Virus genome (UHGV): UHGV-0134996
DNA length: 64,000 nucleotides
DNA from: a virus
Reading direction: 5' to 3' (one strand)
Part shown: one piece after another, positions 28,892-29,890 of the stretch
How positions within the stretch are numbered: the stretch's first letter is position 1
Layout: each line of letters begins with the position of its first letter
Position numbers and translations under genes: made by a program
The notes under the pieces: generated by a model
Database searches by the model: none
What the model saw: only the letters and a program-made list of their open reading frames with translations
What the model was told of the DNA's origin: nothing

Positions 28892-29890
28892 TTATCCGTT
28901 ACCTCGCGACGGTTTCTGGGTGATAAACGTATCAAGCATCTTTTCCGCGATTGCCGACCAGGTGTGACACTGGACCTTTTCAGCATTTTTCACGCGATCA
29001 ACGCGAGCAATAACCTCATCCCAATCAATCCGCGACTTGATAACCATATGGTTCACCAAAGCCAGGCGATCCGGCGGAAGACAATCGGGCGGCGTTAATA
29101 TCAACGCCCCACACATTGCCGCCTCAAGAACAGTTAATCCAAGGCTTTCGGGATGCGTAACAATAAAAACGTCACTCTTACGCAATTCAGCTGCAAATTC
29201 GGTTGCTGGTACCGGAGTCCGTCTGTATGGGGTTACCGATATATTCCCCGGATCAATGGTAATCAATCCGTCATCGGTCAACGTTCTGGCCTCATACGGA
29301 ACGGCCAGGCGCTGAAGGTTCATAAGGATACTTAAGGAGTGATCAAACCCACTAACATCAAATGCAGCGTGGTCTACAAAAATACGCAGAACATCGTCTG
29401 TTTTGGTTTCCAGATGGAAAAGTTCCTGATTCGCTGCCCATCCAACATGTTTGTTAAAGCGATTATGACGCTCTAACCGACCGGGATTATCCAGGTACCG
29501 CCAGGTATCATCGCGGACAGTAAAAGTAATATCGACTGGTGCTGAATCCAGCATAGAACCGTCATATACCTGGGCTACCCATCCAGAGAATCGGCGACAC
29601 AGTTGCATGCCTATTTCCCTGGGTACCGTAGTAAAATACCTCAATCCTGGTGCCAAAATGGCCTTCGCAGAACATGCGGTCGCAGCAGTCAACACAGCTT
29701 CAACATAATCCTCGGGGCTTTCGACGCCAGGGGAATATGGACGATGGTATTGCAATGTTACCCCTGCCTCACTAAAGGCGCATGCCAGGTTATAAGCCCA
29801 CATTTCCGTATATGTTTTCACATCACTGATGGCTTCAAATTTTCGCCCAATGATCAGGATGTTCATCGGCTTTTCCTCATTCCATTGCAT
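28892..29890 (-). CDS. GT-B fold glycosyltransferase (GT4-like)
   Basis: 332 aa; N-terminal ILIIG Rossmann start and C-terminal ESLGLTVLEAAMCG motif; last gene of ban operon. Confidence 0.6.
   Translation of the reverse strand: MQWNEEKPMNILIIGRKFEAISDVKTYTEMWAYNLACAFSEAGVTLQYHRPYSPGVESPEDYVEAVLTAATACSAKAILAPGLRYFTTVPREIGMQLCRRFSGWVAQVYDGSMLDSAPVDITFTVRDDTWRYLDNPGRLERHNRFNKHVGWAANQELFHLETKTDDVLRIFVDHAAFDVSGFDHSLSILMNLQRLAVPYEARTLTDDGLITIDPGNISVTPYRRTPVPATEFAAELRKSDVFIVTHPESLGLTVLEAAMCGALILTPPDCLPPDRLALVNHMVIKSRIDWDEVIARVDRVKNAEKVQCHTWSAIAEKMLDTFITQKPSRGNG

Follow-up and report, generated by a model that had tools for sequence, protein, structure and literature searches.

The last gene of the helicase operon in the 64,000-nucleotide stretch of viral DNA analysed here (the window) poses the question of why a phage would encode a putative sugar transferase beside a DnaB-type helicase and which molecule such an enzyme would decorate. 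By sequence match, the open reading frame (28892..29890, minus strand; 332 aa with an ATG start as annotated in P1) is the phage P1 gene dbn and, having been named already, does not constitute a new gene. P1 and the window are ~98% identical, with 97.8% nucleotide identity over positions 28000-32500 where the frame lies under the annotated dbn, and the two Dbn proteins share 97-98% amino acid identity with few residues that differ. The position of dbn between ban and gene 5 is the same in P1 and the window. The earlier note on this DNA did not recognise the frame as a named P1 gene, an identity which is shown by the P1 match together with the annotation. Database entries for P1 Dbn (P1_gp078, YP_006544) bear the annotation 'possible glycosyltransferase', and elsewhere the product is designated glt or 'Glt' in P7, GT4 in RefSeq, and 'putative glycosyltransferase, Dbn' in RCS47. 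The P7 record has a nonsense codon at position 32 of dbn. Dbn matches PHROG 2518 with an E-value of 3.6e-239. Literature searches retrieved no functional study of HdmD, pmgO/P/Q or DUF115 in phage. Rediscovery of an annotated P1 gene by itself adds little; the interest of the observation comes from the genes with which dbn travels.

Within the operon, dbn is immediately preceded by ban (29890..31260, minus strand), which encodes the DnaB-type helicase. The TAA stop of ban and the ATG of dbn share one base (TAATG), which bears out the description of a 332-aa frame immediately after ban on the same strand. Further upstream members of the operon, all on the minus strand, are tRNA(cat)/Ile2 (31540..31615), tciC-tciB-tciA (up to 32315, with tciA at 31890..32315), tRNA-Thr (33243..33318) and tRNA-Asn (33321..33396). 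A bivalent C1 operator (Oban or Op72; 34054..34081) is positioned over the ban operon promoter in the P1 annotation, and displays zero and two mismatches to ATTGCTCTAATAAATTT with the perfect 17-mer on the minus strand. Operator and gene order uphold the assignment of dbn to a C1-controlled operon with tRNAs, tciA and the helicase, in which dbn is the last gene (tRNA-tciABC-ban-dbn). The P1 annotation also places dbn just downstream of the dmt methyltransferase gene in the early operon with ban, and predicts two internal promoters, P1dbn and P2dbn, inside ban. The proposal of a bidirectional terminator after dbn similarly was supported by folding of both strands: the stops of gene 5 (plus strand) and dbn lie at 28844 and 28892, respectively, with a strong two-way intrinsic terminator hairpin (28844..28870) in between. 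The G+C-rich stem of 11 bp is lengthened by an A-run and a T-run, and has predicted folding energies of -20.3 kcal/mol on the plus strand (z -2.9) and -21.1 kcal/mol on the minus strand (z -4.1), values that were matched by none of 200 shuffles on either strand. A consensus terminator scan overlooked this hairpin (28844-28870), as its U-tracts form part of the stem.

The annotated start of dbn probably is eight codons too far upstream. The true start most plausibly is Met9, which would yield a protein of 324 aa from a coding sequence at 28892..29866 (minus strand; ATG at 29866..29864), and a Shine-Dalgarno sequence, GAGGA, can be read 7 nt upstream of this ATG (29874..29878, minus strand). The revision is suggested by the starts of diverged Dbn homologues, 15 of 15 of which begin MK/R-ILIIG, by seven of 81 P1-like contigs in which homology starts exactly at the Met9 ATG with its own Shine-Dalgarno sequence and differing upstream sequence, and by the Dbn model in which residues 1-9 are unstructured and the first ten-residue block has a mean pLDDT of 63. 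The gene is real and is under purifying selection. The 76 full-length P1-like alleles that align without gaps (49 distinct) contained no premature stops and had a pN/pS of 0.08-0.12, indicative of strong purifying selection. A pseudogene or a gene in decay was considered as an alternative, and is ruled out by the pN/pS of ~0.1 and the 76 intact alleles.

Searches with the single Dbn sequence returned a negligible match only in NCBIfam and nothing significant in the PDB, and profiles and structure prediction therefore were needed for assignment. The AlphaFold (AF2) model of Dbn (pLDDT 88.8, pTM 0.86) adopts a GT-B fold that is closest to GT4 enzymes. Comparison of the model with the PDB produced 87 matches at E<=0.001, and the best 50 of these 87 all possess the GT-B fold and are mostly GT4, plus other glycosyltransferases and UDP-GlcNAc 2-epimerases. 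The leading matches are GlgM (E 3e-10, TM 0.66), sucrose-phosphate synthase, PimB' and BshA. The best viral structural match is a Tupanvirus glycosyltransferase (TM 0.76-0.80). The model and the PDB matches substantiate the original claim of a GT-B, GT4-like glycosyltransferase. A profile search, by which the earlier note had suggested that the family be assigned, produced a match to Pfam PF00534 (Glycos_transf_1) of 23.7 bits which is below the gathering score of 26.4 and covers residues 229-315 in the C-terminal domain only; it is the structure model that carries the GT-B assignment. The P1 cluster representative has a precomputed PF00534 match in the database, and the relatives P0102 and P0151 exceed the gathering score with 29.9 and 28.4 bits, respectively.

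The part of Dbn that is matched by PF00534 and by PDB 8xsg is the ESLGLTVLEAAMCG segment (29108..29149, minus strand; residues 248-261), which contains the EX7E motif (E248...E256) of retaining GT4-type enzymes. Both glutamates of this motif are invariant in 16 close and 51 diverged Dbn members, and G251, G261 and H246, the last just upstream of ESLGLTVLEAAMCG, also are invariant in the diverged set. A GWAA(D/N) motif (residues 150-154) and a D173-H174 motif are located at the domain junction (29369..29443, minus strand): W151, D173 and H174 are invariant and G150, A152, A153 and D/N154 are at least 90% conserved in the diverged members. These two motifs, which are not known to us as features of GT4 enzymes, probably form an acceptor or sugar-binding site. 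Dbn shares with GlgM, PimB', BshA, WaaB and the A. minor glucosyltransferase (8xsg) a two-Rossmann GT-B fold with EX7E in the C-terminal domain and a soluble, cytoplasmic character, but is only 10-13% identical to GT4 enzymes. At ~320 aa the protein is compact compared to most of the matched structures, which are longer, and the Dbn family comprises a small separate clade of 376 clusters at E<=0.001 among 1.84 billion representatives. No transmembrane segment was detected in Dbn, PmgO, PmgP or PmgQ, for which the maximum Kyte-Doolittle mean over 19 residues was <=1.55. Overall, the modelled fold and the conserved motifs make it very probable that Dbn is an active GT-B enzyme, which would be soluble, catalytically intact and of GT4 type, probably retaining, and supplied by an NDP-sugar donor.

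The informative neighbors of dbn homologues elsewhere are relatives of the P1 glycosyltransferase genes pmgO, pmgP and pmgQ, with which the earlier note did not connect dbn. The pmgO gene (22294..22956, minus strand) encodes a Maf/DUF115 (sialyltransferase-like) protein, homologues of which flank or are fused with Dbn homologues. A PmgO structure predicted from an alignment of database homologues (pLDDT 86.7) has Maf (5mu5) as its best PDB match (E 3e-5), and the PmgO family profile matches CstII at E 2e-4. A second DUF115-type partner gene is pmgP (21770..22396, minus strand), whereas pmgQ (20398..21099, minus strand) specifies a GT8-like GT-A glycosyltransferase with D-x-D, GDQ and FHG-x-P motifs, the family profile of which matches the GT8 structures 5gvv (E 2.5e-5) and 6mw5 (E 9e-4). 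The P1 copies of the partners were retrieved at E 1e-24 to 2e-70. The P7 annotators termed pmgN/O/P/Q 'head morphogenesis' genes. The partner genes are situated 6-8 kb from dbn in P1, where the module is split: dbn resides in the ban operon, and pmgO-pmgP-(ppp)-pmgQ are in the pmgL operon beyond the baseplate genes 5-26. A C1 operator (O26 or Op82; 24004..24020) occupies the divergent region between gene 26 and pmgL together with the late promoter LPpmgL of the pmgL-Q operon. As both operons are governed by C1 operators or a late promoter, all four genes are expected to be made only in lytic growth.

Beyond the P1 lineage, 16 of 20 diverse loci have a gene of PmgQ-like, second GT8-like or DUF115-like type no more than a few kb from the Dbn homologue, most often immediately next to it, and further loci outside this set of 20 exhibit the same pattern. 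The PmgQ homologue usually directly follows the Dbn homologue. Domain fusions include DUF115 with Dbn (P0089), with PmgQ (L092) and with GT8-like domains (L177-179 and L182), and Dbn with a methyltransferase (P0103). The islands additionally harbor sugar-tailoring enzymes, namely TylF and FkbM O-methyltransferases and a PIG-L deacetylase, as well as a sulfotransferase, a pyruvyl transferase and a nucleotidyltransferase-cupin protein. On the strength of this adjacency and fusion, Dbn probably forms a functional module with PmgO, PmgP and PmgQ. The locations of the islands vary. In L095 and the Bradyrhizobium prophage L190 it is packed between the genes for tail sheath and tail tube, which leaves almost no intergenic space. 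In L092 it comes immediately behind the major capsid gene. The phiNP island separates the lysis genes from terminase, and those of L004 and L006 are a short way upstream of terminase. D3 and PAJU2 have a PmgO-like gene within their clusters of head and neck genes, with the PAJU2 copy annotated as 'structural protein'. T4-like marine phages carry the island in a region of recombination and helicase genes, close to UvsX- and UvsW-like genes. Isolates of the three families have Proteobacteria as hosts in nearly all cases. Apart from a P1-type E. coli contig and a fragment of 209 bp, a scan of genome contigs retrieved nothing, and so offered no bacterial context; a bacterial example with a Dbn-like and a WaaZ/MptE-like gene is found in a kps-like capsule locus of Colwellia.

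No Ban homologue was found next to Dbn among the non-P1-lineage loci examined. Adjacency to Ban is confined to P1-type loci, and a link to the helicase or to replication as a general association therefore was rejected; Dbn is not a replication accessory. Co-expression with replication functions, which had been taken as a clue to function, is a peculiarity of the P1 lineage. The case that had been set against the enzyme assignment, a conserved replication accessory without a glycosyltransferase fold, did not materialize: the fold was found and the helicase linkage is not conserved. A role in tRNA modification, prompted by the tRNAs in the operon, also was discarded as a tRNA is nearby in only one of 25 diverse loci.

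In-frame deletions of dbn, pmgO, pmgP and pmgQ produce normal plaques (Gonzales et al., 2022), and CRISPRi knock-downs of dbn and the pmg partner genes were scored as non-essential. The explanation that is favored here, albeit tentatively, is a phage glycan-building module that operates in the lytic phase and acts most likely on virion proteins. Dbn, the GT8-like GT-A enzyme PmgQ, and the Maf/sialyltransferase-like PmgO and PmgP would comprise one conserved module whose members may act one after another in the cytoplasm and so build up a short oligosaccharide on the acceptor, with CMP-Kdo-type donors possibly used by PmgO and PmgP. The likeliest acceptor would be at least one virion structural protein, modified before or during assembly, an identification that is possible rather than probable. 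The modification would be dispensable for plaque formation on laboratory K-12, yet selected for in nature. A link with the virion is suggested by islands amid sheath/tube, capsid and terminase genes, by the PmgO-like genes among head and neck genes of D3 and PAJU2, by the 'head morphogenesis' label in P7, and by the P1 parts which flank the baseplate genes 5-26. The nearest solved relatives of the module enzymes include Maf, GlyE and the A. minor glucosyltransferase, which we take to be cytoplasmic enzymes that glycosylate proteins. Several observations count against a virion acceptor. The deletions with normal plaques and the non-essential knock-downs offer no phenotype to which the model can be anchored, gaps between structural genes and between lysis and terminase genes are classical insertion points for unrelated accessory genes, and the marine T4-like islands amid recombination/helicase genes and the Dbn-like gene in a capsule locus lie elsewhere. 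No glycan is reported for P1 virions, and neither the P1 virion proteome paper nor the 2026 cryo-EM paper mentions glycosylation.

The deletions of dbn, pmgO, pmgP and pmgQ retain parental EOP on EcoA, EcoB and EcoK (type I) hosts. Plating of a knockout on restricting hosts, which had been recommended as a check, hence already is published and negative for these type I systems. The result weighs against the proposal that Dbn adds sugar to a modified base of replicating P1 DNA in the manner of T4 as protection from restriction, although this role would explain the place of dbn beside the helicase and downstream of dmt in the early operon with ban. The marine islands close to UvsX- and UvsW-like genes also speak for it. 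The GT-B fold is shared by phage DNA glucosyltransferases, and the T4 alpha- and beta-glucosyltransferases, which act on hmC in DNA, resemble Dbn as phage GT-B enzymes that are expressed with replication genes. In contrast to the T4 system, no hydroxymethyl-base pathway was seen and a dbn knockout leaves type I restriction unchanged: no thymidylate-synthase-like hydroxymethylase or TET/JBP enzyme occurs among 25 of the 42 Pfam families from 68 island-neighbor proteins, no hydroxymethyl-base enzyme is annotated in the P1 regions around dbn and the pmg genes, and the T4 enzymes are absent from the best 50 of the 87 structural matches and from the PDB sequence search. Furthermore, the helicase adjacency is restricted to the P1 lineage, and several transferases accompanied by O-methyl, sulfo, pyruvyl and de-N-acetyl tailoring have the look of glycan synthesis rather than base modification. 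Ordinary restriction enzymes routinely cut P1 DNA. DNA glycosylation is highly unlikely in view of these data. A stand-alone enzyme that acts independently of PmgO/P/Q on a host or phage cytoplasmic protein or small molecule, for example in the take-over of a host factor or the inactivation of a defense protein or signaling molecule, would accommodate the separate transcription of dbn and the pmg genes in P1, the Dbn homologues of L101 and L102 which have no partners within 8 kb, and some P1-like phages that keep pmgQ and pmgO without dbn, a pattern which implies that Dbn is an optional step. Purifying selection without a laboratory phenotype also is typical of counter-defense genes. However, partner transferases are adjacent or fused in most lineages, and none of Dbn, PmgO, PmgP or PmgQ matched the PADLOC defense-system models. 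We know of no precedent for a role of this kind in the Dbn enzyme family, and independent action is decidedly improbable.

The main rival to a virion acceptor is the host envelope. Dbn, PmgQ and PmgO/P might sugar a host glycolipid at the cytoplasmic face of the inner membrane, with lipid A-core, an undecaprenyl-linked O-unit, ECA or a capsule precursor as candidate substrates, and thereby alter the surface of the infected cell, for example by masking the LPS-core receptor of P1 or by changing the interaction with other phages. The P1 receptor is the LPS core, and the combination of GT4, GT8 and WaaZ-like proteins is the toolkit of the LPS outer core. WaaG and WaaB belong to GT4, and the PDB matches of Dbn include a glycosyltransferase of LPS biosynthesis (5n7z/5n80); WaaO and WaaJ belong to GT8; and DUF115 proteins have weak WaaZ_KDO_III matches. 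The Colwellia capsule locus points in the same direction, and Proteobacteria as hosts nearly throughout would fit a substrate that is specific to Gram-negative bacteria. Nevertheless, all four P1 genes are behind C1 operators or a late promoter and so would be silent in lysogens, late lytic expression would leave little time to replace surface LPS, the L190 and L095 islands are packed between sheath and tube genes, and the phage islands revealed neither membrane segments nor a flippase or initiating phosphoglycosyl transferase. The seroconverting GtrABC and Oac systems also are phage genes that change a glycan, but these are membrane proteins expressed in lysogens whereas Dbn and its partners lack a membrane segment and are under C1 or late control. 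Remodeling of the envelope is judged rather unlikely. Among the three targets that had been put forward for the enzyme, DNA, a protein or the cell surface, DNA is the least likely, and alteration of the surface for exclusion is a poor fit with C1 repression in lysogens.

Modification of virion proteins, the preferred reading, may extend well beyond P1. A conserved, previously unrecognised pathway of P1 and a scattered set of Proteobacteria phages, in which Dbn, PmgQ and PmgO/PmgP with optional methyl, sulfo, pyruvyl or deacetylase tailoring decorate virion proteins, possibly with a Kdo-type first sugar, is a more doubtful proposition. Carriers of the pathway genes are lambda-like and Mu-tail-like prophages, phage-plasmids, T4-like marine phages and jumbo phages. 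Virion glycosylation systems exist in mycobacteriophages and in giant viruses (chlorovirus, mimivirus). These employ several soluble glycosyltransferases and methyltransferases, as in the Dbn islands, and their genes are located with structural genes and are dispensable for growth, as for the Dbn module; the hosts of the latter differ in being Proteobacteria, and a glycan on P1 or the island phages is so far a prediction. If a virion target is correct, P1 would be, to our knowledge, the first case among tailed phages of Gram-negative hosts in which glycosylation of the phage's own particle is demonstrated. Deletion mutants already exist and so the question of the target is directly testable.

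P1 is among the best-studied phages and yet maintains four sugar-transferase genes, dbn, pmgO, pmgP and pmgQ, on which purifying selection acts strongly. By comparison of genomes, these genes emerge as one module; it turns up again, in rearranged and fused form, across many unrelated phages, frequently within virion-gene operons. Should the target be the host envelope, the module would represent a lytic-phase system for surface remodeling. Should the target be the virion, phage self-glycosylation would extend from actinobacteriophages and giant viruses to classical coliphages, with a bearing on immune recognition, particle stability and phage therapy.

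The 332-aa open reading frame at 28892..29890 on the minus strand coincides with the annotated gene dbn of phage P1. The window represents a phage or plasmid of P1 type, and the segment 28000-32500 matches P1 at 97.8% identity over its full length. The P1 annotation describes dbn as 'downstream of ban' and 'function unknown, possible glycosyltransferase'. In P7 the gene is named glt, 'putative glycosyltransferase', the RCS47 label is 'putative glycosyltransferase, Dbn', and the RefSeq protein cluster is called 'glycosyltransferase family 4 protein'; PHROGs places the product in family 2518, function unknown. 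The gene is thus already known and tentatively annotated, and the structural assignment made in the earlier note is correct, but not new. Ungapped full-length alleles, 49 of them distinct, were recovered from 76 of 81 P1-like viral contigs. None contains a premature stop and pN/pS relative to the window is 0.08-0.12. Sequence conservation and modelling indicate that dbn is a real gene with a presumably active product. In the P7 record (L002 / AF503408) codon 32 is TGA, where P1 and the window have TGG (Trp32). This stop accounts for the shorter 287-aa 'Glt' annotation; it either stems from a sequencing error or marks an inactivated allele.

The dbn gene directly follows ban on the same strand, the ban stop codon overlapping the annotated dbn ATG (TAATG). 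A hairpin at 28844..28870, between dbn and the converging gene 5, has an 11-bp G+C-rich stem that is extended by A/T runs; its folding energy of -20 to -21 kcal/mol on either strand beats 200 of 200 shuffles, as suits a two-way terminator. Further upstream, also on the minus strand, are the genes for tRNA(cat), TciC/B/A, tRNA-Thr and tRNA-Asn. The ban operon promoter is covered by a bivalent C1 operator, Oban (34054..34081), assigned by operator match and P1 annotation. Every element of the C1-controlled operon that had been noticed beforehand, with tRNAs, tciA, the helicase gene and a bidirectional terminator, is therefore present in the sequence. Between this promoter-operator region and the first tRNA gene (33396), at 33869-33888 (-), lies a G+C-rich hairpin of 8 bp with a U7 run behind it. 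With a dG of about -15.6 kcal/mol and z of -2.0, it resembles an intrinsic terminator or an attenuator of the operon leader.

Translation of dbn probably begins at Met9 (ATG 29866..29864), which is preceded by GAGGA. All Dbn homologues begin at MKILIIG, equivalent to the Met9 position. In addition, seven of the 81 P1-like contigs (L079-L084, L086) have ban and dbn separated by an additional ~300 bp (e.g., L079 7700-8000); in these, homology to the window restarts exactly at the Met9 ATG, which has its own ribosome-binding site upstream.

The Pfam Glycos_transf_1 profile scored Dbn at 23.7 bits, under the 26.4 threshold; this match alone does not secure the family. Structure was more informative. 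The AlphaFold2 model, built from an alignment of 16 homologues, comprises two Rossmann-like domains (pLDDT 88.8, pTM 0.86), and Foldseek comparison with the PDB retrieved GT-B glycosyltransferases. The best matches were GT4 enzymes at ~11% identity, with GlgM (E 3e-10, TM 0.66), sucrose-phosphate synthase, PimB' and BshA at the top; the LPS-biosynthesis glycosyltransferase 5n7z/5n80 also was among the best. The motif quoted previously corresponds to residues 248-261 and includes the EX7E signature E248-x7-E256, which is invariant in 51 Dbn members down to ~25-30% identity, as are H246, D173-H174 and W151 of GWAAD. No hydrophobic segment was found in Dbn. The protein is an uncharacterised phage-encoded GT-B glycosyltransferase of a class already known, and fold and motifs together suggest an active GT4-type transferase.

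Dbn belongs to a clade that is small and distinct: word-indexed searching across 5.8 billion proteins gave just 22 clusters, and exhaustive profile searching across 1.84 billion gave 376 representatives (E<=0.001). No helicase gene neighbours a Dbn homologue in the loci examined outside the P1 lineage. The ban-dbn adjacency is peculiar to that lineage and the helicase linkage is incidental. The interpretation in the earlier note is partly supported: its GT-B/GT4 assignment holds, but the co-expression with replication functions is confined to the P1 lineage. The modelled fold and the restricted helicase linkage do not agree with a conserved replication-accessory gene lacking a GT fold. In L003, a Citrobacter phage-plasmid, tRNA(cat) (6155-6230) lies 1.8 kb upstream of the Dbn-like gene, as in the P1 order trnI-ban-dbn; two small ORFs occupy the position of ban, and the layout is suggestive of common ancestry.

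The recurrent neighbours of Dbn are other predicted glycosyltransferases. Two lambda-like contigs (L004, L006) have the order [DUF115-A][DUF115-B][(GT8-like)][Dbn][PmgQ-like] a short way upstream of terminase, and the core of this order recurs in E. coli phage IME392. In 16 of 20 diverse loci, with more examples besides, at least one PmgQ-, GT8- or DUF115-like partner is located within a few kb, in most cases overlapping the Dbn gene at its start or stop. A functional link is supported by fusions of DUF115 to Dbn (protein P0089), to PmgQ (L092) and to GT8-like domains (L177-L179, L182), and of Dbn to a SAM-methyltransferase (P0103) or a second Dbn (P0102). When the window was searched with partner proteins of other loci, copies were located 6-8 kb from dbn on the same strand (E 1e-24 to 2e-70): the DUF115-type genes pmgO (22294..22956) and pmgP (21770..22396), and the GT8-like pmgQ (20398..21099), all on the minus strand. 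P1 therefore encodes four predicted glycosyltransferases that elsewhere form one cassette. PmgQ-family profiles match GT8 structures (5gvv, E 2.5e-5) and the family has D-x-D, GDQ and FHGxP(R/K)P motifs. PmgO and PmgP gave sub-threshold MptE-like/DUF115 Pfam matches, and their family profile matches CstII sialyltransferases (E 2e-4). The sole convincing structural neighbour of the PmgO model (pLDDT 86.7) is the flagellin glycosyltransferase Maf (E 3e-5). The first ~16 annotated PmgO residues have pLDDT <50 and homologues start at around residues 18-20. The start codon as annotated overlaps pmgN and probably is placed too far upstream; SJ46 annotates a shorter, 166-aa PmgO. Only genomes of P1 type have the lambda-type Ser/Thr phosphatase gene ppp (21096-21788, -) between pmgP and pmgQ. 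As it is missing from the islands of other phages examined, ppp probably is an insertion and not a module member. In phage-record searches, P1-like phi456 and JK004 have pmgQ without a Dbn match, phi456 also having pmgO.

Islands in other phages also include TylF- and FkbM-type O-methyltransferases, a PIG-L de-N-acetylase, a sulfotransferase, a polysaccharide pyruvyl transferase and a nucleotidyltransferase-cupin protein, a mix of transferases and tailoring enzymes that is a signature of oligosaccharide synthesis. Among 50,697 phage records, every isolate with a homologue of Dbn, PmgQ or PmgO has a proteobacterial host, the exceptions being three Tetraselmis virus records for PmgO. We conclude that dbn and pmgO/P/Q probably constitute one conserved, widely distributed phage glycosylation module, a link newly drawn here and of which no description was found in the searchable literature.

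During lytic infection, Dbn, PmgQ and PmgO/P would together build a short glycan in the host cytoplasm. The P1 pmgL-Q operon has the C1 operators O26 and Oppp plus the Lpa-dependent late promoter LPpmgL. Since C1 represses both this and the ban operon, the four enzymes are expected to be made lytically and not in lysogens. The acceptor is, tentatively, a virion protein. This reading best accommodates transcription together with structural genes, the absence of a membrane or export component and the Maf-like enzymes; Maf-like enzymes initiate protein O-glycosylation. Islands lie between the genes for tail sheath and tail tube, separated by hardly any intergenic DNA, in L095 and Bradyrhizobium prophage L190, directly after decoration and major capsid genes in L092, and between lysis cassette and terminase in phiNP; in T4-like marine phages they lie among UvsX- and UvsW-like genes instead. 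In Pseudomonas phage D3 (L196, orf7) a lone PmgO-like gene comes directly behind that for the major capsid protein, and in PAJU2 (L195, ORF010) one is among neck genes. These genes and that of Klebsiella phage Eowyn (L197) occur without Dbn or PmgQ, and those of PAJU2 and Eowyn are labelled 'structural protein'. P7 annotators named pmgN/O/P/Q hdmA-D, 'head morphogenesis'. A virion-protein acceptor also agrees with the precedents of viruses that encode glycosylation of their own particles. Among viral structures, Dbn is matched best by a glycosyltransferase of Tupanvirus (TM 0.76-0.80).

The main rival, in which a glycolipid of the host envelope is remodelled, is less likely. It is favoured by the likeness of the GT4, GT8 and WaaZ-like set to an LPS outer-core toolkit, but lytic and late expression argues against it. 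It is also favoured by Colwellia MAG contigs L186-L188, in which a kps-like capsule locus that includes an ABC transporter, Poly_export and a further GT4 holds a truncated gene for a Dbn-like protein (233 aa) and one of MptE/WaaZ_KDO_III type; no other context seen was clearly non-phage. Action of Dbn by itself on some cytoplasmic target is a little less probable again. DNA glycosylation, proposed previously, is very improbable. No acceptor-base pathway was seen in the P1 regions read or among the 25 listed of the 42 Pfam families found in 68 island-neighbour proteins; T4 enzymes are not among the best 50 of 87 PDB matches to Dbn; and the islands are rich in glycan-tailoring enzymes. Furthermore, the proposed knockout and plating on restricting hosts is published for type I systems: in-frame deletions of dbn, pmgO, pmgP, pmgQ and ppp all gave infectious phage with the parental restriction phenotype on EcoA, EcoB and EcoK hosts (Gonzales et al. 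2022; PMC9024508). Genome-wide CRISPRi likewise classed all five genes as non-essential (PMC10695390). Glycosylation is not mentioned in the main text of PMC9024508 or in the 2026 P1 cryo-EM paper, and no glycan on P1 has been reported.

Overall the analysis contributes the dbn-pmgO/P/Q module, a corrected dbn start and the incidental nature of the helicase linkage. As deletion mutants exist, the target of the module is immediately testable. The interest of the module exceeds that of dbn itself: an unrecognised four-enzyme set that may glycosylate the virion of a classical coliphage.
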